Positions 4,907 to 56,595 of a stretch of 64,000 bases of DNA are shown piece by piece. The stretch is taken from the NCBI GenBank assembly GCA_030427295.1, contig JAUHWS010000001.1, forward strand, positions 14,079 to 78,078, given 5' to 3'. The notes under the pieces were generated by a model. That model searched no databases and was not told the origin of the DNA. It was given only the letters and a program-made list of their open reading frames with translations. Position numbers and translations under genes: made by a program. The number at the start of each line of letters is the position of its first letter. The stretch's first letter is position 1. The DNA is from a bacterium. Lineage in GTDB: Bacteria; Patescibacteriota; Gracilibacteria; UM-FILTER-43-11.

Positions 4907-4908
4907 AT

Positions 4909-6471
4909 CTACTTCGCCACATCCATCGCACGAATTTCACGAATCACCTGCACCTTGATGGTTCCAGGATAAGCGAGTTCTTGCTCAATCTTTCGCGCAA
5001 TCTCATGAGAGAGTTTGATGGCCTGCATGTCATCCACATCCTTTGGACGAACAAACACCCGGATTTCACGACCCGCTTGGATGGCATACGCCTTTTCCAC
5101 TCCCTCAAACGAGGTGCCCACGCGTTCCAAATCCTTCAAGCGTCTCAAATAAGTCTCAACGGTTTCGCTACGAGCCCCCGGACGAGCCGCTGAAATCGCA
5201 TCAGCCGCTTGAACCACCAAAGCTTCAGCGGTATTCACCGGTATTTCTTCATGATGGGCCTCCACGGCGTGAACCACCTTCTCGGGCAAACCATATTTTC
5301 GCAAAATATCGGCCCCAATCAAGGCATGACTCCCTTCAATGTCGTGATCGACGGCCTTCCCAATGTCGTGCAAGAAGCCAGCGGTCTTAGCCGCTTGGGC
5401 ATCCGCCCCAATGCTGTCAGCAATTTGGCCTGCCAAAAAACCAACTTCCATACTGTGTTTCATCACATTTTGACCATAGCTGGTTCGAAAGCGTAGTCGT
5501 CCAATGATCTTGATCAAGTCTGGATGCAACCCTGTGATTCCCATTTCAAAGGCGGCCTTCTCCCCAAATTCTTTCATCATTTGATGAATTTCTTCCTTCG
5601 TTTCTTCCACAACCGACTCAATGCGGGCTGGGTGAATGCGACCATCTTCCACTAATTTTTCTAAAGCCCGCTTAGCGACGTAGCGACGCACCAAGTCAAA
5701 GCCAGAAATCATGATGGCATTTGGAGTGTCATCCACAATCACATCCACTCCCGTCAAATGTTCAAAGGCGTTAATGTTCCGCCCCTCCTTACCGATCACC
5801 CGGCCTTTAATATCATCATTTGGCAAAGCCACCATGGTCTGGGTCGATTCTGAGGTGACATCCGAAGCCATCTTCTGAATCGCAGATGCAATCACATTGG
5901 TCGCTTCTTTTTTGGCCTCCTCCTTAACTTCCTCATTCATTTGTTTGTAATGCTCCACCAGTTCATCTTTGTACTCCCGTTCCATATTATTCAAAAGCAT
6001 TTGACGGGCTTCTTCTTTCGTCAATTTGGTGATGTTAGCCAGTTTTTCCTCTTGTTCTTGATACAACGCTTCAATTTTATCTTCGGTCTGCTTGAGTTTT
6101 TCTTCACGTTGCTCATAAGCCAACTTCTGTTTCTCGATATCCGAAAGTTTTTTCTCTAAATTATCCTCCTTGGTGATGAGGCGTTCTTCATGTTTTTCAA
6201 GTTGTCGGCGCATGGACTGCTCTTCCTTTTTAGCCTCCTCAACAATTTCCAAGGCCTTGTTTTTAGCATCGACAATTTTCTCTTTCAGTTTGGTCTCGGC
6301 GTCAGCGGCTTTTCGTTCAAGTTCACTCAACTTCTTATCGGCCTGGGCAATCTTTTTTTGATTGGCCTCCTCAATCTTTCTTAGGTAATTGTTACCCTCC
6401 GACTTGAAGTAGATGTAAACACCAGCTGCACCAATGATTAAGCCAATAATGGCATAAATTAGGCTGCTCAT
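4909..6471 (-). CDS. rny: Ribonuclease Y
   Basis: N-terminal TM helix, long coiled-coil, KH domain (GRVIGKEGRNI) and HD domain (FLHDIGK). The ORF opens at TTG 6495; ATG 6471 (MSSLIYAIIG..) is the more likely start. Confidence 0.93.
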   Translation of the reverse strand: MSSLIYAIIGLIIGAAGVYIYFKSEGNNYLRKIEEANQKKIAQADKKLSELERKAADAETKLKEKIVDAKNKALEIVEEAKKEEQSMRRQLEKHEERLITKEDNLEKKLSDIEKQKLAYEQREEKLKQTEDKIEALYQEQEEKLANITKLTKEEARQMLLNNMEREYKDELVEHYKQMNEEVKEEAKKEATNVIASAIQKMASDVTSESTQTMVALPNDDIKGRVIGKEGRNINAFEHLTGVDVIVDDTPNAIMISGFDLVRRYVAKRALEKLVEDGRIHPARIESVVEETKEEIHQMMKEFGEKAAFEMGITGLHPDLIKIIGRLRFRTSYGQNVMKHSMEVGFLAGQIADSIGADAQAAKTAGFLHDIGKAVDHDIEGSHALIGADILRKYGLPEKVVHAVEAHHEEIPVNTAEALVVQAADAISAARPGARSETVETYLRRLKDLERVGTSFEGVEKAYAIQAGREIRVFVRPKDVDDMQAIKLSHEIARKIEQELAYPGTIKVQVIREIRAMDVAK

Positions 6472-11572: not shown

Positions 11573-11614
11573 GCAAAAGTATATACTAGGTATATACCTA
11601 GTATATACTTTTGC
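11573..11614. repeat. Perfect 42-bp palindrome with three GTATATAC boxes spaced 11 bp apart
   Basis: GCAAAAGTATATACTAGGTATATACCTAGTATATACTTTTGC equals its own reverse complement. Boxes at 11579-86, 11590-97 and 11601-08. Confidence 0.9.
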
Positions 11615-11661
11615 TTGACAAAAAAATTTGAAAGAATAAAATCAAATGACTGATTGATAAC

Positions 11662-12111
11662 TTGTTTATTGTAATGGGTCAGCCTTCAATTAACGTATTG
11701 TTTTTAAGCCAGAGGCCTGAGGCACCTGATGAAGGTGACCTCAAGACTATCAGAGGATACTTGCACGGAGTCCTGATGAGAATTGCATCTGTGGCAGCTT
11801 CGAGTGAAGATATGAGTGAAATTCGAAATGGCGTCGATAACTTTGTACACTCAGGCATGACAACTGCCAGGCAAAGAGGTCACTATGTGCAGACCGGTAA
11901 TGATGGCCGCTGGGAATACATAACTCATGATTTAGAAGGGGTTGATGTACGCAGACAAGTGATGTGTGTCCTAGAGGTGGCTGCACAACTTTTACATACA
12001 GCTGGCTCCTTTGTTCCCGCTCTATCTGGTCAGGACAAGAATGCTATTAAGCGCTTGGCAGGAGAAATTCGACGGCAGTCATCAGGTTCCAATGCACATG
12101 CAACTGCTTAA
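11662..12111 (+). CDS. Hypothetical protein (ORFan)
   Basis: 149-aa ORF (TTG start; an ATG alternative at 11674) with no recognisable motif. Called coding only from ORF length and absence of competing ORFs. Confidence 0.45.
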   Translation: MFIVMGQPSINVLFLSQRPEAPDEGDLKTIRGYLHGVLMRIASVAASSEDMSEIRNGVDNFVHSGMTTARQRGHYVQTGNDGRWEYITHDLEGVDVRRQVMCVLEVAAQLLHTAGSFVPALSGQDKNAIKRLAGEIRRQSSGSNAHATA

Positions 12112-13145: not shown

Positions 13146-14405
13146 ATGAAATCGATCTTTAAACACCTCATTCAATTTTTGCTGGGATTTAAAGCACATC
13201 GTTTCCTTAAAAAAAATCGTATCCAAGTCATTGCCATCACAGGCAGTGTGGGGAAAACCAGTACCAAAGAAGCCATTTACACGGTCTTGAAGGATCGATT
13301 CTCCGTGATGCGAAGCCGCAAGAGTTTTAACACGCCCATCGGCATGAGTCTAGCCATTCTAGGTGAGGAAGAGTCCGGTTTTTCATCTACAAAAGCCTGG
13401 GTCAAAATCTTATGGCGGGTGTTTGTAAAGAAAGGGGAAATTCCTCAAAAGATCATTCTCGAAATGGGGGCCGACAAACCCGGAGATATCAAGGCGCTCA
13501 TGCGCATTGCTCCACCTCATATTTCCATCGTCACAGCAGTTAAACCGGTTCATTTGGCAGAGGGACAATTCAAAGACATCGATGATATTGCCAAAGAGAA
13601 AGGTCGACTCGTCAACGATCTCCCTCGATTTGGTTTGGCCATTTTAAACCAAGATGACCCCCGTGTCAGTCAAATGAAAACCGTCGCCAAAAAGCTGACC
13701 TACGGCATTGATAGATCGTCAGATTTACAAGCCTCCGAAATCAAAATGACCCCCAAAAAAATCCATTTTGAAGTGCTCTATAAAGGAGAATCAGCCCGTT
13801 GTGAACTACCAGTGGTGGGCGCCTATCATATCTATGTGGCGCTCCCTGCCATTGCGGTGGGCATTTCGATGGGCATGAGTTTAGCCGAATCGTGTAAGAC
13901 ATTGGCTCATTTTCATCTCCCTTCAGGGCGCATGAACCCGATTGAAGGCCTTAATGGGGCGCACATTTTGGATGGTTCCTATAATGCCAGCCCCTCCACC
14001 ATGAAAGCGGCACTACAGATGTTAGAAGAGCTCAAAGCTCCTCGAAAAATAGCAGCCTTAGGGACCATGAATGAGTTAGGAAAACAATCCTTCGACGCCC
14101 ACATTGAAGTGGGAAAAATGGCAGGAGCGATTGCAGATCTAATCATTGCCGTAGGGCCAGAAGCCCAAAATCTCAAGCAGGGTGCCGTGGTCGCAGGGAT
14201 GAATGCTGAGTCTATTTTTACCTTTGACGATTCAAAAGAAGCAGGAGACTTACTCGCCAAAAAACTTCAAGAAGGGGACCTGGTTCTAGTGAAGGGGTCT
14301 CAAAATAAAGTACGCATGGAACGTTTAGTCAAACAAATCATGAAGGACCCCAAGCGCGCCCCCGAACTCCTCTGCCGACAAGGAAAAGCCTGGACTGAAC
14401 GGTGA
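13146..14405 (+). CDS. murF: UDP-N-acetylmuramoyl-tripeptide--D-alanyl-D-alanine ligase
   Basis: Mur ligase P-loop ITGSVGKTSTKE, plus central and C-terminal Mur ligase domains (DGSYNASP). Confidence 0.88.
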   Translation: MKSIFKHLIQFLLGFKAHRFLKKNRIQVIAITGSVGKTSTKEAIYTVLKDRFSVMRSRKSFNTPIGMSLAILGEEESGFSSTKAWVKILWRVFVKKGEIPQKIILEMGADKPGDIKALMRIAPPHISIVTAVKPVHLAEGQFKDIDDIAKEKGRLVNDLPRFGLAILNQDDPRVSQMKTVAKKLTYGIDRSSDLQASEIKMTPKKIHFEVLYKGESARCELPVVGAYHIYVALPAIAVGISMGMSLAESCKTLAHFHLPSGRMNPIEGLNGAHILDGSYNASPSTMKAALQMLEELKAPRKIAALGTMNELGKQSFDAHIEVGKMAGAIADLIIAVGPEAQNLKQGAVVAGMNAESIFTFDDSKEAGDLLAKKLQEGDLVLVKGSQNKVRMERLVKQIMKDPKRAPELLCRQGKAWTER

Positions 14406-14406: not shown

Positions 14407-14680
14407 GTATATACTCATCCTCTCCCCAACTATATACCTAAGTCTTAAATTTCCAATTCACACCAATTCATTCCAATTCACCCCAAACAAATTTTAAAGT
14501 CTAATTCTTAATTTCTAAATTGGTTTGAATTTGCTTTATTTAAGCTATCTTTATTCCAAATAATGTTTAAAAATTAGACATTCGGAATTCGGTTTTATTT
14601 GGAAATTGTGACATTGGAAATTGGTCATTGAGAAAAAGTATATACCCACCCTCACAAAAAGTATATACCTAAGTATATGG
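14407..14680 (-). repeat. GTATATAC double-box module M2 (interior type 1, inverted relative to M1)
   Basis: Boxes at 14407-14, 14430-37 (CTATATAC), 14638-45 and 14661-68, plus a degenerate box at 14673-80. The first box starts 1 nt after the murF TGA (ggTGAaGTATATAC). Confidence 0.85.
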
Positions 14681-14714
14681 TTGTCATTCCCCCGCCACGG
14701 CGGGGGAATCGTCC
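14681..14714 (+). repeat. GTCATTCC-hairpin-GGAATCGTCC element
   Basis: ttgtcattcccccgccacggcgggggaatcgtcc. The architecture matches the elements at 19738, 20128 (inverted) and 20198. Confidence 0.75.
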
Positions 14715-14764
14715 AAATTCAGAAAAACTAAATACAGGTCACCCTCGGACTCACGTTCAGCAAC

Positions 14765-19585: not shown

Positions 19586-19737
19586 TTTGCGATATTTATT
19601 GCTAATATTTGTATTATATATGATGCTATATTTAATGTCAAATTTAGTGCTATTTTTAAGTTATCCTAGTTCAATAGCTCAAAAACTAAGCAGTTCCTCT
19701 ATTTGTAGTGAAATGACAGTTAGAGCCAACTACACAA

Positions 19738-19780
19738 TGTCATTCCACACCGAAGCGAAGCGGAAAGCGTGGAATCGTCC
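19738..19780 (+). repeat. GTCATTCC-hairpin-GGAATCGTCC element
   Basis: tgtcattccacaccgaagcgaagcggaaagcgtggaatcgtcc. Confidence 0.8.
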
Positions 19781-20159: not shown

Positions 20160-20197
20160 ATCAAAAATTTAAGCTCAAAAATAAAAATAATTACAAA

Positions 20198-20240
20198 TGT
20201 CATTCCACACCGGAGCAAAGCGGAGAGCGTGGAATCGTCC
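20198..20240 (+). repeat. GTCATTCC-hairpin-GGAATCGTCC element
   Basis: tgtcattccacaccggagcaaagcggagagcgtggaatcgtcc, near-identical to 19738-19780. Confidence 0.8.
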
Positions 20241-27558: not shown

Positions 27559-27682
27559 TCGCAAAATAATGCTTCAGCTTGCACATGAGTCTCATTCTAA
27601 GCCTCCTGTTTCAGCTTATGTACCATTTTGCTCTTTCCCATGAAATATGCCTTCGACTTCGCATTTTATGGGGACCTCTGAC

Positions 27683-27773
27683 TAATCGCTAATCGCTAAT
27701 CGCTAATCGCTAATCACTAATCGCTAATCACTAATCGCTAATCACTAATCACTAATCGCTAATCACTAATCGC
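27683..27773 (+). repeat. Perfect-phase heptamer microsatellite, 13 units of TAATCGC/TAATCAC
   Basis: Read directly. The order of G/A unit variants is G G G G A G A G A A G A G. Confidence 0.92.
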
Positions 27774-27873
27774 TCTTTAAAAATCATTGATATTTCCGCA
27801 AAGCCGAAAACGCACACCAGCCGAACAAAGAATTCCCCTTCCTCTCCCGCCCGCTTTACACTACAATACAGCC

Positions 27874-28521: not shown

Positions 28522-28650
28522 TGAAGCGACTAGCGAGTAGCGACGAGCGATTAGCTAAAATAGATCTTAGAATAGAGCTAAACACTACACGCCAATCGCT
28601 AAACGCTCTAAAAATTCGTAATTCGTAATTTGTAACTCGTAATTAAAAAG
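28522..28650 (-). repeat. Box-less copy of module interior type 2 (AGCGNNN and ATTCGTA heptamer blocks)
   Basis: tgaagcgact agcgagt agcgacg agcgatt agc ... aattcgt aattcgt aatttgt aactcgt aatt aligns with the reverse complement of 31140-31270. It fills the ftsE-purM spacer. Confidence 0.75.
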
Positions 28651-31102: not shown

Positions 31103-31343
31103 GTATATACTTTGGGTTGGGGTGGGTATATACTTTCGCCTCAATTACGAGTTACTAATTACGAATTACGAGTTTATTTTTTGAGCGTATAGCGATCAGC
31201 GTATAGCGTTTAGCTTTTTAAAATAAGGTTTTTAGCTAATCGCTACTCGCTATTCGCTAATCGCTTGTTGAAAAATGTATTGAGATGGTGCTCAGCATTT
31301 TGAAGAGGGTGAGTATATAGTTGAGGCGAGGATGAGTATATAC
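31103..31343 (+). repeat. GTATATAC double-box module M3 (interior type 2)
   Basis: Boxes at 31103-10, 31126-33, 31313-20 (GTATATAG) and 31336-43. The interior has ATTACGA x4, AGCGNNN x5 and CGCTANT x4 heptamer blocks, homologous to 50039-50270. Confidence 0.85.
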
Positions 31344-33995: not shown

Positions 33996-34110
33996 ACGAA
34001 TGGGATGCGGATAGGTTGCGAATGGGCGACGGATAGTTTTACGAATGGCTTCACGGATGGTTTACGGATTGTTTTTGAATAGGGTGCGAATAGGTTACGA
34101 ATTGATTTCG
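33996..34110 (+). repeat. 11-nt periodic array, about 10 units (acgaatgg gatgcggatag gttgcgaatgg gcgacggatag ...)
   Basis: Starts at the nt immediately after the dprA TAA. It lies between convergent genes. Confidence 0.88.
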
Positions 34111-34189
34111 CTTAGTCCTTAGTCCTACAAAAAAATCCCAACACCGCCTCCAAAAGAAACGATGCTGGGATTTTCAAAATTTAAAAGTG

Positions 34190-35945: not shown

Positions 35946-36350
35946 ATGCTGTTCGTCCTACTCTCCATCCATTTGGGATTCATGTTTCTCATCCTTTCAC
36001 CCACCCCCCTACTCTTTCGAATGAACTACGAATCCCTCCCCCTGGTAGAGGCTTCTCTGATTCCCAAAAAGGTCCAACGTTTTTTAGAGGATTCAAGCAC
36101 ACCTCTTTCCATTTCCTCAGATGGGGCGGTCAATTTCTCCGACCAACTCAAGGCCAAATTCCTCGAATTCCGTCGCGAAAAATTTTTGGATGACACCGAA
36201 CGTCTCGCCCTCGATCTCAGTCTGGTCAACTTTGGCTCAGACATTTTGGGTATGGAAGCCGGCGCTCAATATTATTTTCAAAAACCTCTCAGTGATCTCA
36301 CCGAGGACCAATGGATGTCGCTGATTTATTTTCAGGCGATTTTTAATTGA
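35946..36350 (+). pseudogene. Truncated/degenerate GT51 peptidoglycan transglycosylase-like gene
   Basis: TM helix, then ..IPKKVQRFLEDSS.. where EDxxFxxHxG is expected, then LDLSLVNFGSDILGMEAGAQYYFQKPLSDLTEDQWMSL (GT51 motif-3-like). The ORF ends about 80 aa early, directly at an 11-mer array. Confidence 0.45.
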
Positions 36351-36436
36351 GCGGATAGGTTACGAATGGGTTGCGGATAGCTGCGAATGGTTTACGAATA
36401 GTTAACGGATAGGTTGCGGATGGGTAGCGAATGGTT
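36351..36436 (+). repeat. 11-nt periodic array, about 8 units (gcggatag gttacgaatgg gttgcggatag ctgcgaatgg tttacgaatag ttaacggatag gttgcggatgg gtagcgaatgg)
   Basis: Starts at the nt after the TGA at 36348-50. Confidence 0.88.
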
Positions 36437-36465
36437 AAGGAGTTATCCCTTTTAATAACATAGTA

Positions 36466-36930: not shown

Positions 36931-37149
36931 GTATATACTCACCCTCTCCTCAACTATATACCTATCCTCCTCAAAAAGCTGAGAGCTCGCAGCTTGTCGC
37001 TGGGAGTGAAATTCAGTTGATACAATTCTCTATTCATCTTAAATAAGAGATAATTTGAGTTATTCTAAATATTGAATAGTCTACCAGCTAACAGCTAATA
37101 GCTACCAGCTAGAAAAAAGTATATACTAACCCCACCATAAAGTATATAC
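36931..37149 (-). repeat. GTATATAC double-box module M4 (interior type 3)
   Basis: Boxes at 36931-38, 36954-61 (CTATATAC), 37119-26 and 37142-49. The interior, with ACCAGCT/AACAGCT/AATAGCT heptamers, is homologous to 60134-60352. Confidence 0.85.
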
Positions 37150-42364: not shown

Positions 42365-42790
42365 ATGAGAAGTGTTAATAAGGTCATCCTTGTTGGAAAC
42401 CTCACACGAGATCCTGAGCTCAAGCAAACGACAGGAGGACAATCCATTGTCACCTTTGGCATGGCCACCAATCGAGAATGGGTCACGGGAGACAATGAAA
42501 AAAAATCACTTGCCGAATACCACAATATTGCTGCTTGGGGACCCCTCGCTGAAATTTGTGGAAAATACCTCAAAAAAGGAAAATTAGTCTACATCGAAGG
42601 CTACTTAAAAACACGCTCATGGGACAGTCCGGAAGGGGTAAAAATCTTCAAGACTGAGATTGTCGCCACTGACATGATCATGCTCGACAAGCGCCCTCAA
42701 GATGAGGGCTTGCCAAATAACGACCATTTTGAAGATCATATGAGCAGCCCTGAAGAGCCGGATGACAATGTATTTGATCCCGCTGCCTAA
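42365..42790 (+). CDS. ssb: Single-stranded DNA-binding protein
   Basis: OB-fold pattern VNKVILVGNLTRDPELK..TFGMATNREW..EYHNIAAWGPLAEICGKYLKKGKLVYIEGYLKTRSWD. The acidic tail ends DDNVFDPAA. Confidence 0.9.
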   Translation: MRSVNKVILVGNLTRDPELKQTTGGQSIVTFGMATNREWVTGDNEKKSLAEYHNIAAWGPLAEICGKYLKKGKLVYIEGYLKTRSWDSPEGVKIFKTEIVATDMIMLDKRPQDEGLPNNDHFEDHMSSPEEPDDNVFDPAA

Positions 42791-46816: not shown

Positions 46817-47236
46817 ATGCCAACCATCAACCAATTGGTCCGAAAATCTCGAAGAAAGCAAAAGAAGAAAAGTAAGGCACCTGCGCTTCAATATACTTTC
46901 AACACCTTGAAGAATAAAACAGTAGCCTTTAAAAAAGGAGCCCCTCAAAAACGGGGTGTTTGTGTCAAAGTAACCACGATGACTCCTAAAAAGCCAAACT
47001 CGGCCTTGCGTAAAATTGCACGTGTTCGATTGACCAACGGAAAAGAGGTAAATGCTTACATCATGGGAGAAGGTCACAATCTTCAAGAGCACTCGGTAGT
47101 CACACTTTATGGAGGTCGTGTGAAGGATTTGCCAGGGGTGCCTTATCACATCACTCGTGGGGTGCTCGACTGCCAAGGGGTTCAAGACCGAAAGCAAGGC
47201 CGCAGCCGTTATGGAGCCAAAAAACCTAAAAAATAA
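46817..47236 (+). CDS. rpsL: 30S ribosomal protein S12
   Basis: [44 protein letters not shown]. Confidence 0.97.
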
Positions 47237-47281
47237 TTTTACAGAACTCGCTAATCACTAACCGCTAATCGCTCTAATTCT

Positions 47282-47743
47282 ATGAGTAAAGTTAAACATC
47301 AATACATTCCTGCAGGATCTACCGCGTGGCAAGAAAAGTTCATCAATTGCATGATGCTCCGTGGTAAAAAATCAGTCGCTCGGTCCATTTTTGCTGAAGC
47401 CATGAGACACATGCGTGACCAAGGCATTAAGAATCCTGAAGAGATATTTGAAAAAGCCATCCGGAATGTCATGCCAAACATGGAAGTACGAGCAAAGCGT
47501 GTCGGGGGTAGTGTGTACCAAATTCCAGTCGAAGTAAAACCAAAGCGACAATTAGCACTCAGTATTCGATGGATCATCAACGCATGTCGCAGTAAAAAAG
47601 GAAGTCCTATGGGAAAACGACTGGCGAATGAATTGATGGAAGCTAGTAAAGAAGCTGGTTCTGCTTTCAAGAAACGAGAAGACACCCACCGTATGGCTGC
47701 TGCCAACAAAGCCTTTGCTCACTTGGCCCGATACAGTCGCTAA
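47282..47743 (+). CDS. rpsG: 30S ribosomal protein S7
   Basis: FINCMMLRGKKSVA..NVMPNMEVRAKRVGGSVYQIPVEV...HRMAAANKAFAH. Confidence 0.95.
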   Translation: MSKVKHQYIPAGSTAWQEKFINCMMLRGKKSVARSIFAEAMRHMRDQGIKNPEEIFEKAIRNVMPNMEVRAKRVGGSVYQIPVEVKPKRQLALSIRWIINACRSKKGSPMGKRLANELMEASKEAGSAFKKREDTHRMAAANKAFAHLARYSR

Positions 47744-47838
47744 TTTTTAGAGACCTTTTTTTCATTTATAGGCGTACTGCTTTAGACTTGCTTTAGTAAA
47801 ATAATTGTGGTACTTTGAGGCAAGATTAACATTTCATT

Positions 47839-48867
47839 ATGTCCAATAAGATCAGCCTAAAAAAATGTGTGAGTCTTTTTTTGGCGACCATGGCATTGGT
47901 GGTTTATCTGCCTACCTTTGCCCAAGGTCAAGACGAAGCAAAAAAGGGATTTTTGGATGTCGCCAGGACGCACGAATATTATGTGCCCATCACCTATTTG
48001 GCGAGCCAAGAAGTGATCAAGGGGTATGATGATGGCAATTTCAAATCTGACAAATTTGTCAATAAGGCTGAGGCCCTAAAAATCATCATTGAAGGCTCAG
48101 ACATTCCAACCGATGTTGTCTTTAGCCCCCTTTTTCCGGATGTCACTCAAGCTGATTGGTTTTGGAGTTACGTGATGAAGGCTCATGGACTGGGCATCGT
48201 CAACGGGAATGACGAAGATGGAACGTTCACTGGTTACGAAGTCGTCAATTTGGCGGAGTTCCTAAAGATGCTCCTCTTAGCCAACGAGATTGATGTCACG
48301 ATTTTTGAAGGCAAGCAAATTGTTCCGAATGTCGATCCCGCCGTGTGGTTTTCGAATTACGCCAGCTACGCCGCTCAAACTGGGATCATCAGTCTGAATG
48401 AAAATGGAGAAATCGACCCCTCTGCCACCCTAACTCGTGGAGAAGTGGTCAATCTGATGTACCTCCTCATTATTGTCATGAATGGCTCAGACACCGATTT
48501 TCTGACCGAACAAATGGAGCAACAAGTTGGACAAATTGAGATCTACATTGCCGACAATCGCTTGGATTTAGCCAAAACCGCCTCCAAACTGGCCGATGAC
48601 ATCGGGCAGCAAATCATCAAAAATGACGGAGAAGATCTCACGGTTGTGGCAGCCGCCAAGGTGGCCCGTGCCTATGATTTATTGGTGGATGCTTACATTG
48701 CAGGCACCGAAGGTAACAATGAAAAGGCCACTGATCTGGCCAATCAAGTCATCCAAAAGGCCAATGAAGCTCAAGAGACCGACGGAGCCCAAGAAAGCAT
48801 CGCCATCCACCTAAAAGAAATCGCCCAGGACATTCTAGAAGAGGTCGAAGCCGATACTACTCAGTAA
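47839..48867 (+). CDS. Secreted protein with three S-layer-homology (SLH) domains and a C-terminal helical region
   Basis: Signal peptide, then three SLH-like repeats: FLDVARTHEYYVPITYLASQEVIKGYDDGNFKSDKFVNKAEALKII; FPDVTQADWFWSYVMKAHGLGIVNG..; VDPAVWFSNYASYAAQTGII..LTRGEVVNLM. Confidence 0.75.
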   Translation: MSNKISLKKCVSLFLATMALVVYLPTFAQGQDEAKKGFLDVARTHEYYVPITYLASQEVIKGYDDGNFKSDKFVNKAEALKIIIEGSDIPTDVVFSPLFPDVTQADWFWSYVMKAHGLGIVNGNDEDGTFTGYEVVNLAEFLKMLLLANEIDVTIFEGKQIVPNVDPAVWFSNYASYAAQTGIISLNENGEIDPSATLTRGEVVNLMYLLIIVMNGSDTDFLTEQMEQQVGQIEIYIADNRLDLAKTASKLADDIGQQIIKNDGEDLTVVAAAKVARAYDLLVDAYIAGTEGNNEKATDLANQVIQKANEAQETDGAQESIAIHLKEIAQDILEEVEADTTQ

Positions 48868-48900
48868 AACCAACTAAAAACCAGCTAAAAACCAGACAAA
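48868..48900 (+). repeat. 3 x 11-nt array (aaccaactaaa aaccagctaaa aaccagacaaa)
   Basis: Starts at the nt after the SLH-protein TAA. Confidence 0.8.
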
Positions 48901-48958
48901 TTTTTTAAAAATTGATCATGTTTTTTTGTTACTCTAAAAACCAATAACAACCAATCTT

Positions 48959-49369
48959 ATGGCGTTAGAAGGAGAAAGAGGTGATGATATCAGCCTTCAT
49001 GGTCTTAATAAAAGTCAGCTTCTCACGGATTTGGGAGAATATGAGCGAGTTTCAAGATTATTAGAGCAACAAGATGAGGTCGGTCCAGAATTGGATCAAC
49101 TGATCCTCCGAATGGCAAAAATCAGAGCACGTATCAATGCAGTTATTCTTACATGGTGGAGCGGTGATGACCCAAGTGGACAACCAAGGCATAAACGCTT
49201 AGGACTCCGGGCTGAACACATGGGTCATATTTTATTAGGGGTAGCATTCCATTATCCTCCAGAGCTCATTACTACAATGCGCAACTACGTTAATCGATCT
49301 TTGGCTGAAGACAGTGGCTCGCGATTGCCTGCCGCCGTAGCGCGACAAGAAATTAGCGCAGCCACCTAG
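48959..49369 (+). CDS. Hypothetical protein (ORFan)
   Basis: 136-aa ORF with no recognisable motif. Confidence 0.45.
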   Translation: MALEGERGDDISLHGLNKSQLLTDLGEYERVSRLLEQQDEVGPELDQLILRMAKIRARINAVILTWWSGDDPSGQPRHKRLGLRAEHMGHILLGVAFHYPPELITTMRNYVNRSLAEDSGSRLPAAVARQEISAAT

Positions 49370-49400
49370 TTAAGATAATTTTTTATTTTAATATTACAAC

Positions 49401-49757
49401 ATGACCAATCCCGACACCCGTGACCCCACTTTAGAGGATCTTGTCGAAGAAGTGGCAGGAACAATAATTGGCCCTAATATCAACATAAAACCGCAAGGGT
49501 TAAGGGTAAGAGCAGAAGCACTTGAAAATGACAGCTATTTGAGAGAGAAAGTTTTAGCTGGCGCACGCAGAGCAATTATGGATGTCGACAGAAAGAGTGA
49601 TTGGTTTCCTAGACTGATGGAGGGGATAGCGCAAGGCACCGACGCAGAGAGGTTAAGGCTAGCGGCCTTTTACCGAGCTCTCGCAGAAAAACTGACAAAA
49701 ATAAGTTCCCAAGCTGGTTCTGTTGACCAGTCAATTTCTGCTGCTGCATCAGCTTAA
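49401..49757 (+). CDS. Hypothetical protein (ORFan)
   Basis: 118-aa ORF with no recognisable motif. Confidence 0.45.
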   Translation: MTNPDTRDPTLEDLVEEVAGTIIGPNINIKPQGLRVRAEALENDSYLREKVLAGARRAIMDVDRKSDWFPRLMEGIAQGTDAERLRLAAFYRALAEKLTKISSQAGSVDQSISAAASA

Positions 49758-49810
49758 TCTCTCAACAGGAGTGCACGTAAGTAGGCTTCGGCATTGAATT
49801 TTTTGGCAAA

Positions 49811-50009
49811 CCCTGAAGGCGAGATTGGCTAATCTCGCCTTCATTGAAAAATAAGAAAACCATTTGTCATCCTTGGAACCCTAAGGGCCCCTTAGGGGCT
49901 TGATCCAAGAGTTGTCTGTATCTGGAACCTCTGAATTCAAAAAGACTCCCAAGTTCACCTTTTTGGTAAACCACTCGCTAAGCTCGTGGACCATAAAGGC
50001 TCGGGAGTG
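49811..50009 (+). repeat. About 200-bp structured repeat R, copy 2
   Basis: Near-identical to 1144-1343 and likewise followed directly by a GTATATAC module. Confidence 0.85.
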
Positions 50010-50038
50010 ACATTAAGGTGTGGGGTAGGTATATACTT

Positions 50039-50270
50039 TGTGTGAGGGTTAGTATATACTTTATTCTTAGTTACGAATTACGAGTGACGAATTACGAGTT
50101 GATTTTTTGAGCGTTTAGCGGTCAGCGTATAGCGTTTAGCTCTATTCTAAGCTCTATTTCAGCTAATCGCTAGCCACTCACCACTGACCACTTGCCGAAA
50201 AAGGAAGCGGGACGATTCCCAGCATTTCGAAGAAGGTAGGTATATAGTTGGGAAGAAGGTGAGTATATAC
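50039..50270 (+). repeat. GTATATAC double-box module M5 (interior type 2)
   Basis: Boxes at 50039-46, 50062-69, 50240-47 (GTATATAG) and 50263-70. The interior is homologous to M3. Confidence 0.85.
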
Positions 50271-50282
50271 TTCTTTTCCAGC

Positions 50283-50310
50283 TTGTCTTTTTCGCTCCAA
50301 TCGGTATACT
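50283..50310 (+). promoter_or_regulatory. Candidate promoter for fusA (TTGTCT-16-TATACT)
   Basis: TTGTCT at 50283-88, a 16-nt spacer, TATACT at 50305-10, about 105 nt upstream of the fusA ATG. Confidence 0.4.
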
Positions 50311-50414
50311 ATCTTCGCCTTTTTATTGAAGTGACAACGAGTGGAAAGCAATTCCAGCTGCCCAGGGTCACTCACTATAAACAGTAAGTAATCAATAATA
50401 ATTAATAATTCAAT

Positions 50415-52502
50415 ATGTCAGACTACAAGGAAGCACTCAAGAAGGTCCGAAACTTTGGGATCATTGCCCATATCGATGCAGGGAAGACCACCTGTACCGA
50501 ACGTATTTTGTACTACACCGGTAAATCTTACAAAATCGGGGAAGTGCACGAAGGAGAAGCCACCATGGACTGGATGGAACAAGAGCAAGAACGCGGGATC
50601 ACCATCACTGCTGCCGCCACCACTTGTTTCTGGAAAGATCATCACTACAACATTATCGATACTCCAGGTCACGTGGACTTCACCGCTGAAGTAGAACGTT
50701 CCATGCGTGTGCTCGATGGGGGGGTAGTGGTTTTTGATGGGGTGGCTGGGGTAGAACCTCAGTCTGAAACCGTATGGCGCCAAGCTGACAAATACCATGT
50801 ACCTCGCATGTGTTTTATCAACAAGCTCGACCGTACTGGAGCCAGTTTTGAGCGTTCGTTCCAAAGTATCTTGGATCGCTTGACCAAAAATGCCTCACCC
50901 ATTCAATTGCCGATTGGAATGGAGTCAGACTTCAAAGGGCTGGTTGACTTGGTCGAAATGAAAGCCACCATCTACACCAACGACTTGGGAACCGACATGG
51001 AAGAAACCGACATTCCCGAAGACATGAAGGCCGATGTAGAAAAATGGCGCGCTCAGATGCTCGAAAAAGTCGCCGAAGGGGACGAGCAATTCATGGAAAA
51101 GTATTTGGGAGGTGAAGAATTCACCACCGAAGAACTCAAAGCCGCCATTCGCCGTGCTGTGATTGCCAACAATTTTGTCCCGGTCCTCACCGGGACAGCC
51201 CTCAAAAACAAGGGGGTACAACTGCTTTTGGATGCCGTAAACGACTACCTACCTTCTCCACTCGACATTCCTGCCATCAAAGGACACATGGCAGATGATC
51301 CAGAAAAAACCGTGGAACGCCACACTGATCCAAATGAACCTCTTGGAGCCCTCGTCTTCAAAATTGCTACGGACCCTTTTGTAGGACGCCTCTGTTTCGT
51401 TCGTGTCTATTCAGGAGTCCTCAAATCTGGATCTTATGTGTACAACTCCTCTCAAGATGCCAAAGAACGAATTGGACGCTTGGTGGAAATGCACGCCAAC
51501 GATCGAAAAGAAATTCAAGAAATTTCAGCGGGACACATTGGGGCCGTCATTGGTCTCAAATCAGTGCGAACCGGATCCACTCTCGTGGGAGATGGTCAAC
51601 CAAAAGTGATTCTCGAATCCATCGAGTTCCCCGAACCCGTGATCTCGATTGCCATCGAACCTAAAACCAAAGCCGACCAAGAAAAGATGGGGCTAGCGCT
51701 TCAAAAATTGGCCGAAGAAGATCCAACCTTCCGTGTACGCTCGGATGAAGAAACCAATCAAACCATCATCTCAGGAATGGGTGAGCTTCACCTCGAAGTC
51801 CTCGTAGACCGCATGAAACGCGAATTTAAAGTGGAAGCAAACATTGGTAAGCCTCAAGTGGCCTATCGTGAAACCATCCAAAAAGAAGTGGAAGAAGAAG
51901 AGAAATACTCCAAGCAAACCGGTGGACGCGGTCAATACGGTCACGTGCTCATCCGTGTCATGCCAAACGAAGCCGGAAAAGGATACGAGTTCATTGACTC
52001 GATCGTGGGAGGGCGTATTCCTAAAGAATACATCCCTGGGGTGCAAAAAGGTCTCGACGAAGCCCTCACGCGTGGGGTGATTGCTGGCTACCCAGTCGTC
52101 GATGTCAAAGTAGAGCTCTACGACGGGTCTTACCATGACGTCGACTCTTCTGAGTTAGCCTTTAAGATGGCTTCTAGCATTGCCTTCAAGAACGCCTGTA
52201 AAAAAGCCAGTCCAGTACTTCTAGAGCCCACCATGCACGTGGAAGTCGTGACTCCAGAAGATTACATGGGGGATGTGATGGGGGACATCAACTCTCGTCG
52301 GGGGCAAATCGATTCGATGGGGGATCGTGGACAAGCCAAAACCATCGAAGCCAAAGTCCCACTCTCCGAAATGTTCGGTTATGTTGGTGACCTCCGCTCG
52401 ATGACCCAAGGAAGGGCTTCATACACCATGGAATTCTCTCACTACGCCAAAGTGCCTAACAACGTGGCTGAGAAGATCCGTGAAGAACGAGGGATGGCGT
52501 AA
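50415..52502 (+). CDS. fusA: Elongation factor G
   Basis: [27 protein letters not shown], and domain IV/V blocks. Confidence 0.97.
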
Positions 52503-52545
52503 GTCTAATTCATTCCAATACGTTCCAATTCATTACAATTTCCAA

Positions 52546-52582
52546 ACGAAGGCGAGGATATATATCCTCGCCTTCGTTTTTT
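52546..52582 (+). terminator. Intrinsic terminator after fusA
   Basis: acgaaggcgagga-tatata-tcctcgccttcgt followed by tttttt. The stem sequence gaaggcgagg is shared with the first hairpin of repeat R. Confidence 0.85.
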
Positions 52583-52708
52583 GGAATATAAAATATGTAG
52601 GTCTTCACACACGAGCTTTCAAAATCTCAATTTTTCCTCTTAATAAAAGCCAAAAATCACATTAAAGAATGACGTAATTAATTACATAATTTTGTATTTT
52701 CATCGACA

Positions 52709-53422
52709 TCATTTATTACTTTGCTTCTGTCTTCTGATCTCCGCATTCACTTGCTCAAGAGTATCAAAAAAGGCTTTACGAGACCCAGACGCTCTATCTA
52801 ACATTGACATGTAAGTAAGGACCTCTGGATCATTTAGAGGTCCCCTTAAGGCATCTCTCCACAGAGTTTCAGTTTTTGTATCAATGCTTCCACTCGACAA
52901 ACCCTCATTTAAACGGTTAAGTATAAACATAGCTGCCATTATTTTACCAGATGACTCACCATGAAGTCGCAGTCTGTCTTTGATATGCAGCCGTCTTGCA
53001 TATTGAGTGAATATAGACTGAATTGTTCCCACCTGTTCTTTATGGGGCAGACTTGCTACGTAATCTATGGCAGACATGACAAAGTTCTCGCCCTCACTTG
53101 CATCCGAAGCCAAAATTTCATCCACTAATGGCTCAGTTTCGTGCTGAAGTCTATCGCCCAAAGCGTTAATCCATCGATTTCGAATGTCATCAGGCAATTG
53201 CCTAATATAACCCATTATTTGATGAACAAATTTGCGTTGAACGTGCTCAGGTGTAATCCAATCGTGATGATGTGAAGATGCGTTCCTCATTCCTCTATCA
53301 AAGGCTGCTTGCATCGCATCAGCATCTCGAGCTGCATCCATCTCGTATAAAAATTGTTCAAAGTAATCGCGCTTGGGTTCAGGTGCGGGAATCCGATAGG
53401 TGTCTTTTGATCTTTCATTCAT
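52709..53422 (-). CDS. Hypothetical protein (ORFan)
   Basis: 237-aa ORF that looks helical, with no signal peptide and no recognisable motif. Confidence 0.5.
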   Translation of the reverse strand: MNERSKDTYRIPAPEPKRDYFEQFLYEMDAARDADAMQAAFDRGMRNASSHHHDWITPEHVQRKFVHQIMGYIRQLPDDIRNRWINALGDRLQHETEPLVDEILASDASEGENFVMSAIDYVASLPHKEQVGTIQSIFTQYARRLHIKDRLRLHGESSGKIMAAMFILNRLNEGLSSGSIDTKTETLWRDALRGPLNDPEVLTYMSMLDRASGSRKAFFDTLEQVNAEIRRQKQSNK

Positions 53423-53529
53423 CCCTTAATTATAACATTTTCTTAGTTAAAACACAAAAAATAACCCTTAATTCCCATTTGAAACGCCTTTGTCTTTCTG
53501 CTACACTCCAAACAGAAAAAAACAAAAAA

Positions 53530-54018
53530 ATGAAAAGCGTAGTAAGCACATCACTTTCTCGTAAACTCAAATCCGGCGTCCTGTGGGGGCTGGGATTTTT
53601 TGCGGCTTTTGGGTTGGCATTTTATGCCTACGCCATTGGATTTCCTGACACCCAACCGGGTCCCGCCTCTGGCGTCGTGGGGATGTTTGTAGGAGCCACG
53701 CCCCAGGTTTATACTGGAAACATCAGCAATTACGACAAGGCCAATGGAAATTGCATCGACGCCTACGAAGACAGCCACATTTGCACGACCACCGAAATAA
53801 TCAATACTTACAATCACAATTCAGCTACCCTTCTGGGTCAAACCGATAGTTTTTGGGTCAACGGTGGCAGCCCTGCAAATCTAGAAGACTTCAGCAGTGA
53901 TTGTTTAGGATGGAGCACGGATCTTAGTGTTGCTTTCGGATATGTATGGGATACCGGTGATCAGCGGGCCTACCTCACCTCCTGCGACCAACAGCGCGCT
54001 TTTGCTTGTTGCAAGTAG
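53530..54018 (+). CDS. Membrane-anchored/secreted Cys-rich protein
   Basis: ATG 53530 (MKSVVSTS..) precedes a TM/signal helix. The C-terminal domain has 6 Cys (..NGNCIDAYEDSHICTT..SSDCLGWST..YLTSCDQQRAFACCK). A C-type-lectin/endostatin-like fold is only a guess. Confidence 0.55.
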   Translation: MKSVVSTSLSRKLKSGVLWGLGFFAAFGLAFYAYAIGFPDTQPGPASGVVGMFVGATPQVYTGNISNYDKANGNCIDAYEDSHICTTTEIINTYNHNSATLLGQTDSFWVNGGSPANLEDFSSDCLGWSTDLSVAFGYVWDTGDQRAYLTSCDQQRAFACCK

Positions 54019-54072
54019 GTCCGAATGGGTTGCGAATTGGCCGCGAATAGTTCACGGATAGATTACGAATTG
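54019..54072 (+). repeat. 11-nt periodic array, about 5 units, followed by three TGGACCNNNTGG 12-mers
   Basis: gtccgaatgg gttgcgaattg gccgcgaatag ttcacggatag attacgaattg. Starts at the nt after the TAG at 54016-18. Confidence 0.85.
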
Positions 54073-54184
54073 TGGGACGGGTGGTGGACCGAGTTGTGGA
54101 CCAAATGGTTGTCTTAACTGAATAGAAACCACAACCCGGCCAACAATGCGGCCCACGGATTGACTTGGATAAAACAAAATAAAT

Positions 54185-55945
54185 ATGACGCTCAAAAAAT
54201 TTCTCCCTATCGCTACCTTTTTCATGGCTTTGCTTGCGTTTCCCACCCTCACGCAGGCGGGCTTGAGTGATCGTTGTTTTCCCTCCATTCAATGTGATGA
54301 AAGCAGTGACTACTACGCGGGCAGCTGTCAGAAAAAAATCGATACGATCAACGATTGTCCTGTGCCTCCTTTTGGGCAATTCTCTGCCTTTAGTTGTGAT
54401 TACGGATGTTATTTTCGGACGCGCCCCGAATTTCAAGAATGCGCAGGGGGTTTCATGGTCAATGGTACCTGCATGACCTCCCTCGAAATCGTCAACGACG
54501 AAAATCAAAGTAAGATTTGGGATGGGGTCGAACTCGAATCCATCGGAGCCGGTGGTGAAGGGTTGTGGGAAACCGACGGAGTCCACGTGTATCGCAGCTC
54601 CGGAAATGTCGGGATTGGTGTCGAAAATCCCGAAGACTACCCGCTGGATGTAGCAGGCCCTATCAATGTAAATCATGACGTTGAGGGGGCGGCGATTTAT
54701 GCCAACCAGCGTCAAATGCTTTGGTATAATAAGGAATTTGGACTTGCGGGGTGGGGCTTTGACGCCGATGTCAATCTCTTTCCAAAGCGCGTGGGAATTG
54801 GAGCAATGCCTCCAGAAGAAACCAATCTGTATGTCGAAAAAGATGAGGAAGTCAACGCGTTAGGAGGCAATTATACTGGTTATTTCTATAACAAAAATAG
54901 TGGGACCACAGCTACGACTGGCATCTTCACACGCGGAGAGGCAGCCAACGCTTCAACGTATGGGCTCACTAGCTACGCCTGGAGCACCGGATCCAATGAT
55001 GCACACGGGATTTATAGCTATGCCTTAGTACAAGACAACAACAATGCAGACATTGCTTACGGACTGTACTCCATATCAATGAACAATTCCAATAACTGTG
55101 ACAATGAAGGGTGTGCCCACAGCTACGGAGTGTATTCCAAGGCTAATGGACCACTTTCAACAGGGGTGTATGGGGAAGCGCGTCAAACCGCAGGGCATTT
55201 TGTAGGTGCTTCAAACGGAAATAGCAATACCGTTGGATTAAAAGTAGAGAGTGAAGCATCTGGTTCGACCGGAGCCACCTTTAACTGTGACGGCCCTTGT
55301 ACCTCAGCCATTTTTTATGATGGGGATGATGTGGCTTACAACGAATACAAGTCTGGCATGGTGATCATTGGCAGTCCGACATCAAACCATCTCAGTTTCG
55401 ACAACAATGAAATCATGGCTAAACAATTGGGGAGTTTTTCCACCCTCCACCTCAATGCCGATGGAGGGAGTGTGATGCTCACCAAGGGCAATCCAGCTTA
55501 CAAGCTCCAATTGGCGAATGACAGTAATAATTTAAAAGGACGAGGGTTGGCATTCTCGTGGGATACCTTTTCTGACAGTCGGGTCAAGATGAATCAAAGA
55601 GATCTAAAATATGGATTAGATACTCTTATGAAATTACGACCCAAATCTTACGATCATTACAGTGGTACCGTCCAAAACGGCCAAGTCATGCTAGGAGAGG
55701 ATTATGAACCCACCATCGGATTCATTGCTCAAGAGGTTTACGACGTTATTCCTGAGGCTGTCAGAAAGCCAGCGGATGAGTCCAATGAACTCTGGACCAT
55801 GGACAGCGACAAATTGGTCCCGGTGCTGGTCAATGCCATCCAAGAACAACAAACCACCATCGATCAGTTGACTTCTGCCGTCTGCGATCTCAATCCCAAG
55901 GCTGACATCTGCAGCGAATCCAATCAAAAAGCACCCTCAATTTAG
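54185..55945 (+). CDS. Secreted tail-fibre-like protein with C-terminal peptidase S74 intramolecular-chaperone domain
   Basis: Signal peptide; Cys-rich N-domain; central repeats of the xYG(L/V/I)YS type. The C-terminus reads FSDSRVKMNQRDLKYGLDTLMKLRPKSYDH..PTIGFIAQEVYDVIPEAV...DKLVPVLVNAIQEQQ, the endosialidase/tail-fibre chaperone pattern. Confidence 0.8.
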   Translation: MTLKKFLPIATFFMALLAFPTLTQAGLSDRCFPSIQCDESSDYYAGSCQKKIDTINDCPVPPFGQFSAFSCDYGCYFRTRPEFQECAGGFMVNGTCMTSLEIVNDENQSKIWDGVELESIGAGGEGLWETDGVHVYRSSGNVGIGVENPEDYPLDVAGPINVNHDVEGAAIYANQRQMLWYNKEFGLAGWGFDADVNLFPKRVGIGAMPPEETNLYVEKDEEVNALGGNYTGYFYNKNSGTTATTGIFTRGEAANASTYGLTSYAWSTGSNDAHGIYSYALVQDNNNADIAYGLYSISMNNSNNCDNEGCAHSYGVYSKANGPLSTGVYGEARQTAGHFVGASNGNSNTVGLKVESEASGSTGATFNCDGPCTSAIFYDGDDVAYNEYKSGMVIIGSPTSNHLSFDNNEIMAKQLGSFSTLHLNADGGSVMLTKGNPAYKLQLANDSNNLKGRGLAFSWDTFSDSRVKMNQRDLKYGLDTLMKLRPKSYDHYSGTVQNGQVMLGEDYEPTIGFIAQEVYDVIPEAVRKPADESNELWTMDSDKLVPVLVNAIQEQQTTIDQLTSAVCDLNPKADICSESNQKAPSI

Positions 55946-56031
55946 CTTGGTAGTTTAGTCGTTTCGCTAGCTTATTAAGCTCTGTATGCTGCTATGGTGG
56001 CTTCAGCAATAAACAATAGAAATCAGTAAAC

Positions 56032-56469
56032 ATGAAAAAAATAGCCAAAAAAATCAGTGCCGTGCTCCTTGCCACCTTCATCCTCTCCGCTTGTGCCAAT
56101 CAGGATGAAGCGCCAAATATAGAATCAGAGGTCACGACCGAGCCTGATCAAAGTACGACAGATAACTCAAATGCCGAAACTGAAGCCGTTCAAAACACTG
56201 GTACACCAGCCCTTCCCACCACTCCCGACCCCACAGAAGTCCTGGTTCAAGACCTGATGAATGAAACCCAGCCCACCGAAACGGGCACCCTCGATGACCT
56301 CCCTCAAGATCTCCCAGAAGCCACCGACAGTCCCGAATACAGCCAAGCGACCACTCCCGAATCTCCCCAAGATTGTGAAGCCATTCAAGATGCAGAGTTG
56401 AAATCAATCTGCTATCACGCCGCAGGCTACAGCGACAATTCACCCTCTGTCGAGGAAGATGCTTTGTAA
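56032..56469 (+). CDS. Acidic Pro/Thr-rich lipoprotein
   Basis: Lipobox ..FILSAC at aa 15-20. The remainder is low-complexity and acidic. Confidence 0.65.
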   Translation: MKKIAKKISAVLLATFILSACANQDEAPNIESEVTTEPDQSTTDNSNAETEAVQNTGTPALPTTPDPTEVLVQDLMNETQPTETGTLDDLPQDLPEATDSPEYSQATTPESPQDCEAIQDAELKSICYHAAGYSDNSPSVEEDAL

Positions 56470-56470
56470 A

Positions 56471-56554: not shown

Positions 56555-56566
56555 CAAAAAAACCCT

Positions 56567-56595
56567 TTGACAGGCGAGGGGGCATTTGCTAAAAT
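56567..56595 (+). promoter_or_regulatory. Strong sigma-70-like promoter for tuf (TTGACA-17-TAAAAT)
   Basis: TTGACA at 56567-72, a 17-nt spacer, TAAAAT at 56590-95, about 100 nt upstream of the tuf ATG. Confidence 0.65.

Follow-up and report, generated by a model that had tools for sequence, protein, structure and literature searches.

Modular intergenic repeats with paired invariant 8-bp palindromes in the genome of an uncultured Peribacteria/Peregrinibacteria bacterium

This analysis concerns a 64-kb stretch of DNA (the window) from a Peribacteria/Peregrinibacteria bacterium, a member of the candidate phyla radiation (CPR), and seven modules in it, M1 to M7, each end of which carries two copies of the 8-bp palindrome GTATATA(C/G) (the box). 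The modules are discrete, mosaic and constrained in their boxes; they lie at gene 3′ ends and island edges and are missing in relatives. Our preferred reading, held tentatively and at somewhat less than even confidence, is that they represent a modular repeat similar to BOX elements, bacterial interspersed mosaic elements (BIMEs) or REPINs, the boxes of which are read by a sequence-specific protein.

Boxes and box pairs were counted and compared with chance expectations, that of the single box being derived from dinucleotide shuffles. GTATATA(C/G) gave 51 strand-matches in 64 kb (0.54 expected), and the pair pattern GTATATAS-N15-GTATATAC was found at 13 loci, corresponding to 19 strand-matches (0.00 expected). 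The seven modules and a triple-box palindrome described in an earlier note on this DNA are thus real, and most of the coordinates given there hold (Table 1); the end of M2 was corrected to 14668 and the start of M5 to 50029. The window contains 29 exact boxes, 26 in the modules and three in the palindrome. Since the six scattered one-mismatch matches elsewhere fit a chance expectation of 7.9, every true box lies in a module or in the triple-box palindrome. The two boxes of a pair are spaced by 23 bp from start to start, with a 15-nt linker, in 13 of 13 units, and not by 22–24 bp as had been stated.

Ordered by the polarity of the linkers, each module of 219–264 bp consists of a left unit, a core and a right unit. 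The left unit has the form T(A/G)G-GTATATAC-TTTnnnTnnGGGTnn-GTATATAC-TTT, in which TTTnnnTnnGGGTnn is a G-rich 15-nt linker, and the right unit the form T(A/G)(G/A)-GTATATAG-nTnnGnnGAnGnTnA-GTATATAC-T(T/C), in which nTnnGnnGAnGnTnA is a purine-rich 15-nt linker. The inner right-hand box (box 3) is GTATATAG in all seven modules. Linker polarity is identical at both ends of every module, and left and right units are homologous in direct orientation, with a mean column identity of 75%, which agrees with the earlier description of the ends as direct and not inverted repeats, save for the palindromic boxes themselves. Terminal inverted repeats were not found: the inverted match is limited to the 8-bp self-palindromic box (10–12 bp with its flanks). 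In front of box 3 in types 2 and 3 and in M6, and of box 1 in M1 and M5, there is another purine-rich stretch of this kind, so that the basic block is a 23-bp tandem of a purine-rich 15-mer and a box. The tetranucleotide before the first box was TTAG in four, GTAG in three, GTGA in three, ATAG in two and TAGC in one of the 13 units. Box 4 is often extended to the palindrome TGA-GTATATAC-T(T)CA, and at M1, M2 and M6 its outer TCA is the TGA stop of a convergent gene on the opposite strand.

The box pairs had been proposed as the functional part of the modules, and they are indeed the constrained and defining one. All 26 module boxes are perfect, whereas linker differences per site reached 0.32 on the left and 0.24 on the right. 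At linker-like rates approximately 25–30 changes would be expected, by our estimate, over 208 box positions; none was seen. A profile of the 13 units, applied to the window and to 18 related loci, detected neither a decayed or degenerate unit nor a new one. Strong sequence constraint therefore acts on the boxes, and the lack of any decayed box suggests that they are still under selection at each locus.

The cores are imperfect hairpins of considerable length with arms of complementary heptamer repeats, CAATGAC-like in type 1, AGCGNNT/ANNCGCT in type 2 and AGCTGGT-like in type 3. Each of the three types occurs twice, as the earlier note had recognized (identities of 83% for M1/M2, 77% for M3/M5 and 82% for M4/M7), and M6 is a hybrid with a type-2 right half and a left half of a fourth kind. 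Similarity between modules of the same type starts at the T(A/G)G before box 1 and stops one base past box 4. By left-linker variant, M1 groups with M3 and M2 with M5, irrespective of core type. Furthermore, M1 and M5 share a repeat of about 220 bp upstream (repeat U, Table 1) and the left unit; their similarity runs through the left unit and ends approximately 19 nt into the cores, which are unrelated. The interiors are thus interchangeable, as had been supposed. The distances from box 1 to box 3 were 188, 188, 210, 211, 211, 231 and 233 bp, i.e. 17.9, 20.0–20.1 and 22.0–22.2 turns of 10.5 bp, with the core types differing by steps of about 22 bp.

The Logan contigs of run ERR3428543 (k=31) provided an independent assembly of the organism studied. 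From M3 they contain the right end, from M7 the left end with 70 nt of its core, and from M2 part of the right end; the triple-box palindrome is present as well, and the contigs continue through unit ends into unique flanks. A chance pattern or an assembly artefact with repeats collapsed at contig joins, which the earlier note had named as a way to refute the modules, has a negligible probability: no support for it was found, no units are expected by chance where 13 are present, and each copy has its own linkers and flanks. The short-read contigs of this organism do stop at or inside modules, as expected for multi-copy DNA, and the modules account for the fragmentation of its short-read assemblies.

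Folding was compared with shuffled sequences. The whole module is an imperfect palindrome with 65–70% Watson–Crick dyad symmetry, and it folds better than the shuffles on both strands (z from −1.7 to −8.3). The box-linker-box units of 31–35 nt fold as 8–12-bp hairpins with AT-rich stems and 15-nt loops (−6 to −13 kcal/mol). As the linkers cannot pair mutually, a 15×15 bubble of fixed polarity would remain between a box1:box4 and a box2:box3 helix. A choice of strand from G-U versus C-A mismatches was dropped because it is confounded by the purine-rich linkers. A long-range helix between the core start and the right linker was also rejected: it is strong in M3 alone (−16.4 kcal/mol), and across the modules cognate pairs were not significantly better than non-cognate ones, i.e. 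without cognate covariation (permutation p=0.11). The dyad symmetry of whole modules and the 23-bp tandem block go beyond the earlier note, as do the box-free cores and the older, terminator-positioned palindrome hairpin described below.

The taxonomic position of the host was examined through its RNA polymerase. The best relatives of RpoC were 61–89% identical and all belonged to metagenome-assembled genomes (MAGs) of Candidatus Peribacteria, Peregrinibacteria or Gracilibacteria; in the window rpoC is unsplit, RNase Y is encoded and the HIP1 motif is absent. These four observations exclude a cyanobacterial origin of the repeats, as short tandemly repeated repetitive (STRR) sequences or miniature inverted-repeat transposable elements (MITEs), which the heptamers had brought to mind. 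The sole DNA matches were 40-nt heptamer runs on Nostoc plasmids. Unit patterns were scanned through 185,579 species genomes (GTDB), JGI metagenomes and IMG/VR. The right-unit pattern, which fits all seven copies, had no match in any of the three, the left-unit pattern none in JGI metagenomes or IMG/VR, and a loose box-pair pattern run on IMG/VR recovered nothing but scattered single hairpins. Among 80 related rpoC loci (about 1.4 Mb in total) there was neither a box pair nor any other palindromic 8-mer of comparable enrichment, and with plasmid and phage collections heptamer runs were the only sequence shared. No described repeat family matches by sequence, in line with the earlier note, and in the literature we found no description of the motif or of such repeats in Peregrinibacteria/Patescibacteria. 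Relatives commonly have heptamer arrays between their genes, made of other words and sometimes located in the same spacer. Because such arrays are general in Peribacteria spacers, the cores are lineage-typical material and the boxes are the novelty.

All modules are extragenic and adjoin the 3′ end or stop codon of a gene, and at five of six loci they have the orientation of the upstream gene. They occur at about one per 9 kb, 5–17 kb apart among core genes, three on the plus and four on the minus strand within one monotonic GC-skew domain, and contain short, non-conserved open frames only. Orthologous sites were compared for M2–M7, and for these the association of modules with islands of genes without homologues (ORFans), described in the earlier note, holds. 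At the M3 site of eight RpoC-related genomes a ThiL-like gene is followed directly by dprA, whereas three extra genes and M3 lie between them in the window. At the M4 site of eight RpoC-related genomes a transglycosylase-like gene abuts rpoB, where the window has a DUF559 gene, M4 and an ORFan of 337 aa. Of the relatives found, L200 is the closest, with 94% identity in EF-G and nucleotide identities of about 80% in fusA and tuf. It retains fusA, tuf and rpsJ along with the SLH, S74-like and FMO-like genes and has no box upstream of fusA (M5 site) or after the FMO-like gene (M6/M7 site). Two further relatives at the fusA site (EF-G 92–93% identical) have the fusA promoter TTGTCT-N16/17-TATACT in common with the window and no module upstream of fusA. 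The DUF368 gene next to M2 has its best homologues, just 65% identical, in Bacteroidota-type MAGs, and in a relative a different gene follows MurF. By these comparisons M2–M7 are located within lineage-specific gene blocks or at their borders; at four of the five loci the module is at the 3′ end of the block and co-oriented with it, M4 being the exception. The alignment of orthologous loci that had been suggested thus showed the modules to be absent from relatives at M3–M7. Gene truncation by insertion was ruled out: MurF homologues almost all have 419 aa, the length of the protein in the window, so that M2 follows the native MurF stop, and the FMO-like protein has 339 aa compared with 335 aa in L200.

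The location at islands and the fold recall attC sites. The modules might be folded-DNA sites, unrelated to attC in sequence, at which a putative recombinase captures, exchanges or excises the adjoining lineage-specific islands, a proposal we regard as improbable. The box1:box4 and box2:box3 helices, the bubble of fixed polarity, the fixed mismatch in box 3 and the variable core would fit it, as would M2, M3, M5 and M6/M7 at the 3′ ends of co-oriented blocks and the tandem array of M7 and M6. However, the window encodes neither a tyrosine nor a serine recombinase, the islands have a single module each with no box on the far side, and some islands have none (the bAvd gene, ORF 11674–12111). The modules are scattered among core genes and not arrayed, M4 is oppositely oriented, and the cores are repeated instead of cassette-specific. 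The boxes (GTATATAC) do not match attC core sites (RYYYAAC...GTTRRRY), and the window holds no IntI gene or cassette array.

The history of the box motif can be followed at the triple-box palindrome, CAAAAGTATATAC-TAG-GTATATAC-CTA-GTATATAC-TTTTG, located 26 nt past the stop of an LTD-nuclease gene. It folds as a 19-bp hairpin in either direction (−27.7 kcal/mol) and is terminator-like in position and A/T flanks only. L198, a JGI contig of a relative (MurF 79% identical), has the palindrome at the same site with three identical boxes, and its spacers show a compensatory double change from TAG/CTA to TCG/CGA. In L199, a more distant relative than L198, the site is occupied by a GC-rich hairpin between runs of T and A, an ordinary bidirectional terminator. 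The box motif therefore predates the modules, and its earliest setting is terminator-like. After the MurF stop of L198 (3362–3380), 16 nt (AGTATAAGCTCATGTC) match the right end of M2 (outer box and linker) at 12 of 16 positions before the contig, Ga0136261_1007536 of JGI metagenome 3300010234, ends, which hints at a degenerate homologous element at this locus. Directly after the palindrome of the window there is a near-consensus promoter, TTGACA-N16-TAAAAT (11616–12111 region), followed by an open reading frame (ORF) of 145 aa (11674–12111); L198 has only about 200 bp here. We considered this ORF as a candidate for an autoregulated box-binding protein and found no support: among 1.84 billion representative proteins its only homologue was itself or from the same organism, it had no Pfam or NCBIfam match, and its AlphaFold2 (AF2) model reached a pLDDT of 44.

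A role purely at the RNA level, with the modules as 3′-untranslated-region or intercistronic hairpins that end transcription or protect mRNA and have no dedicated protein, appears unlikely to us. It would explain why all modules lie at gene 3′ ends, mostly co-oriented with the upstream gene, and why a T run comes after the left-unit hairpin; the palindrome at a terminator position, with its compensatory change, and the significant folding, seen on both strands, would fit as well. Yet structure alone needs neither 26 of 26 identical boxes nor a fixed G in box 3, and the end hairpins are weak. By scan the modules are not intrinsic terminators, their unit stems being AT-rich with loops of 11–15 nt. 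The Rfam 15 scan of the window returned a single tRNA and no other family at gathering score, E-value searches of the modules gave sub-threshold miRNA-hairpin matches only, and these results, together with the lack of cognate covariation, give no support to the RNA gene that the earlier note had considered as an alternative. A promoter role was rejected as well: the boxes contain TATACT, the −10 of fusA, yet there is no −35 at the right distance and the scans were negative. fusA retains its own promoter downstream of M5.

The perfection of the boxes is also what would be expected of fixed arrays of host binding sites, in which the palindromes are operators of a chromosomal nucleoid-organizing, looping or insulating protein. 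Box pairs would then meet across a bendable or cruciform-prone core, and the arrays would have spread only by ordinary duplication and recombination. We consider this doubtful, though with an appreciable chance of being right. Boxes that stay perfect despite 11–32% divergence around them, without decayed copies, palindromic sites with the extended box 4, box1–box3 distances of 17.9–22.2 turns and the age of the copies all support it. Conversely, the 23-bp spacing within a pair corresponds to 2.2 turns and is out of phase, the sharp borders and the shuffling of parts resemble discrete duplicative units, and close relatives with the same flanking core genes have no modules. No candidate protein was found; the ORF beside the palindrome, an ORFan, yielded a model of low confidence.

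If the modules are a repeat read by a protein, as we prefer, they would be copies of a genome-specific non-coding modular element of the BOX, BIME, REPIN or MITE kind. The four invariant palindromes would be the recognition sites of a probably dimeric protein encoded outside the window, which may copy or recombine the modules without inverted ends or target duplications. Candidate enzymes would be HUH/Y1 (IS200/IS605-RAYT type) or IS607-type serine transposases: HUH/Y1 enzymes recognize similar hairpins that lie on one strand at either end, and IS607-type serine transposases bind several subterminal repeats. A large hairpin inserted at a gene 3′ end would probably act as a transcript-end or insulator structure. 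The transcript-end role is suggested by the oldest box occurrence, the triple-box palindrome, which sits where a relative has an ordinary terminator.

Several points weigh against this reading. The analysis covers a single stretch of a single uncultured genome. Its approximately 50 ORFs encode no transposase or integrase, in accordance with the earlier note, and no recombinase, Y1_Tnp/RAYT or TnpB, and the flanks of the six loci share no direct repeat that would indicate a target-site duplication. Because the intergenic DNA of relatives is not alignable, there is no precisely bounded empty site, and the co-location with islands could simply reflect sites tolerant of insertion. Copies are 11–24% diverged and even the closest pairs do not exceed about 83–89% identity, so that nothing points to recent transposition. 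Judged as Y1-type ends or as terminators the end hairpins are weak, promoter and terminator scans gave nothing consistent in the modules, and the mixed orientation within one GC-skew domain is unlike the strand bias of IS200/IS605. The left ends are preceded by GTGA, TTAG (three times), GTAG and TAGC, i.e. by no invariant target tetranucleotide. The earlier note had proposed either a dimer-of-dimers binding site or a recombination or insertion site; the box constraint it implied is borne out, the two options are not distinguished by it, and no partner protein was found in the window. A PurA/DUF3276-like small single-stranded nucleic-acid-binding protein is encoded at 2930–3274. Proteins of this family bind purine-rich (GGN) strands, which makes it a candidate reader of the purine-rich linkers, a role that is speculative. 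The readings discussed here are not fully exclusive, as REP sequences and BIMEs are both spread by enzymes and used by the host.

Table 1. Positions of the modules and of related features in the window.
Feature	Position	Strand	Parts	Context
M1, type-1 core	1363–1626	+	left unit 1363–1393; right unit 1596–1626	right end abuts stop codon (1627–1629) of convergent GT4 gene
M2, type-1 core, inverted relative to M1	14407–14668	−	right unit 14407–14437; left unit 14638–14668	right end begins 1 nt past MurF stop (14403–14405)
M3, type-2 core	31103–31343	+	left unit 31103–31133; right unit 31313–31343; heptamer arms 31143–31171, 31184–31214, 31235–31265	within three-gene island missing from relatives
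M4, type-3 core	36931–37149	−	right unit 36931–36961; left unit 37119–37149	flanking DUF559 gene and 337-aa ORFan, neither upstream of rpoB in relatives
M5, type-2 core	50029–50270	+	left unit 50029–50059; right unit 50240–50270	ends 12 nt before conserved fusA promoter TTGTCT-N16-TATACT; missing in relatives
M6, hybrid core, right half type 2	59923–60164	−	right unit 59923–59953; left boundary is unit 60134–60164, common to M6 and M7	right unit begins 1 nt past stop of FMO-like gene
M7, type-3 core	60134–60352	−	right unit 60134–60164; left unit 60322–60352	M7 and M6 form a unit-core-unit-core-unit array
Triple-box perfect 42-bp palindrome CAAAAGTATATACTAGGTATATACCTAGTATATACTTTTG	11573–11614	not applicable	boxes 11 bp apart	A/T runs on both sides
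Type-2 heptamer-hairpin core without boxes	28524–28644	−		81–83% identical to M3 and M5 cores; fills spacer of two operon genes that abut in relatives
Type-3 core fragment without boxes	957–1020	+	5′ arm and loop	84–88% identical to M4 and M7
Repeat U	1144–1362	+	about 220 bp	directly upstream of M1 left end
Repeat U, second copy	49811–50028			upstream of M5; about 89% identical to first copy

Besides the modules, the window carries further repeats. Tandem heptamer arrays are located at 27682–27774, 47248–47273, 56470–56556, 58370–58401 and 58834–58866, and in relatives at L117 1359–1407 and 13958–13987, at L126 14336–14392 and at many sites of L161. They fill many spacers between genes, also within operons (rpsL-rpsG spacer), and in related Peribacteria the corresponding spacers carry arrays of other heptamer words. 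The arrays have the look of a lineage-wide intergenic feature that has not been described and recalls the STRRs of cyanobacteria. Arrays of 11-bp units (CGAATGGGTTG-like, one helical turn) lie at 2695–2769, 4654–4912, 33997–34117, 36341–36447 and 54011–54074, mostly just upstream of gene starts, and one pair flanks a block of two genes in inverted orientation; next to the arrays, at 2776–2816, 54116–54156 and 4704–4740, there is a 40-mer that is conserved, AACGGAATA..GCGGCCCAC. Repeat U contains several GC-rich hairpins, e.g. GAAGGCGAGG..CCTCGCCTTC, the stem of which resembles the terminator of L199. A 45-nt GC-rich hairpin repeat, TGTCATTCC-stem-loop-GGAATCGTCC, was found at 19736–19780, 20196–20240 and 14676–14715, where one copy adjoins the left end of M2.

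Gene order around some modules is variable as well. At 46817–59921 the rpsL-rpsG-fusA-tuf-rpsJ cluster is broken up by lineage-variable genes for an SLH protein, small ORFans, a Peptidase_S74 tail-fibre-like protein and bAvd, with an FMO-like oxidoreductase after rpsJ; the stretch separating fusA from tuf is partly common to L200 and another relative, L203. The bAvd/23S-rRNA-IVS-protein gene (58473–58832) lies within 58370–58866, bracketed by inverted heptamer arrays of the AGCGATT/AATCGNT family, like the arms of type-2 modules; L200 lacks this gene between rpsJ and its FMO-like gene. The ssb gene (42365–42790) between rpoB and rpoC keeps its place in all close relatives examined.

Genomes of CPR/Patescibacteria are usually described as small, compact and repeat-poor, and the one studied here has dense intergenic repeats in the form of modules and of heptamer and 11-mer arrays. 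Its perfect boxes predict a sequence-specific protein partner. The modules stand beside lineage-specific genes in conserved operons, upstream of rpoB, between rpsG and fusA and downstream of rpsJ. This raises the question whether they take part in gene gain or insulate newly gained genes, and either answer bears on how episymbiotic bacteria with tiny genomes remodel them. Should the attC-like explanation be true, a phylum whose genomes are regarded as streamlined and poor in mobile elements would have a new system of cassette capture.

Among known systems, the modules resemble in plan the BOX elements of Streptococcus pneumoniae, modular intergenic repeats of the order boxA-boxB(n)-boxC. Both are non-coding, a few hundred bp long and able to form long hairpins, with conserved end modules, a variable middle and no internal transposase. 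There is no sequence similarity to BOX, however: the modules described here end in pairs of an invariant 8-bp palindrome, joined by purine-rich linkers and both in direct orientation, and the middle is one of several unrelated heptamer hairpins instead of a varying number of one module. With repetitive extragenic palindromic (REP) sequences, BIMEs and REPINs, which in Proteobacteria occur with RAYT, they have in common palindromic units of similar size (about 35 nt in REP, 31–35 nt here), a mosaic structure at gene 3′ ends, species specificity and conservation in place; REP elements also combine host roles with enzyme-driven spread, as is proposed for the modules. A short motif 5′ of each hairpin, here T[A/G]G and sometimes GTAG, may be a further likeness to REP. 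REP stems are GC-rich with small loops and the REPs of a BIME or REPIN are inverted, whereas the stems here are AT-rich 8-mers with 15-nt loops, and the two units of a module are directly oriented and about 190 bp apart; the window has no RAYT gene.

Similar hairpins of the same strand at both ends, non-inverted ends and no target duplication are also features of PATEs, the non-autonomous elements derived from IS200/IS605, and in the IS607 family several subterminal repeats are bound by dimers, of which the paired boxes are reminiscent. In contrast to both families, there is no Y1 or serine transposase or TnpB in the window and orientation is unbiased; conservation of the 5′ target is only loose, and the loops of the hairpins are larger than usual. 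Like attC sites, e.g. the Vibrio cholerae repeats, the modules are species-specific, have an imperfect dyad and lie 3′ of promoterless or ORFan genes. Both have two paired boxes that are conserved, a central spacer that is unpaired, an asymmetry that is fixed and a terminal structure that varies; unlike attC, the modules have no R/L core consensus, integrase or dense array and are two to four times longer. MITEs such as Correia, Nezha and ERIC are likewise small, non-coding, hairpin-forming and multi-copy (seven copies in 64 kb here), lie in AT-rich intergenic contexts and are absent from orthologous sites in relatives. They differ from the modules, which have no true terminal inverted repeats, no target-site duplication and no matching insertion sequence in the window, and copies of which are 11–24% diverged. 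The general kind of element is thus known; new are the four invariant palindromes in two pairs of the same polarity, the purine-rich linkers and the swappable heptamer-hairpin cores.

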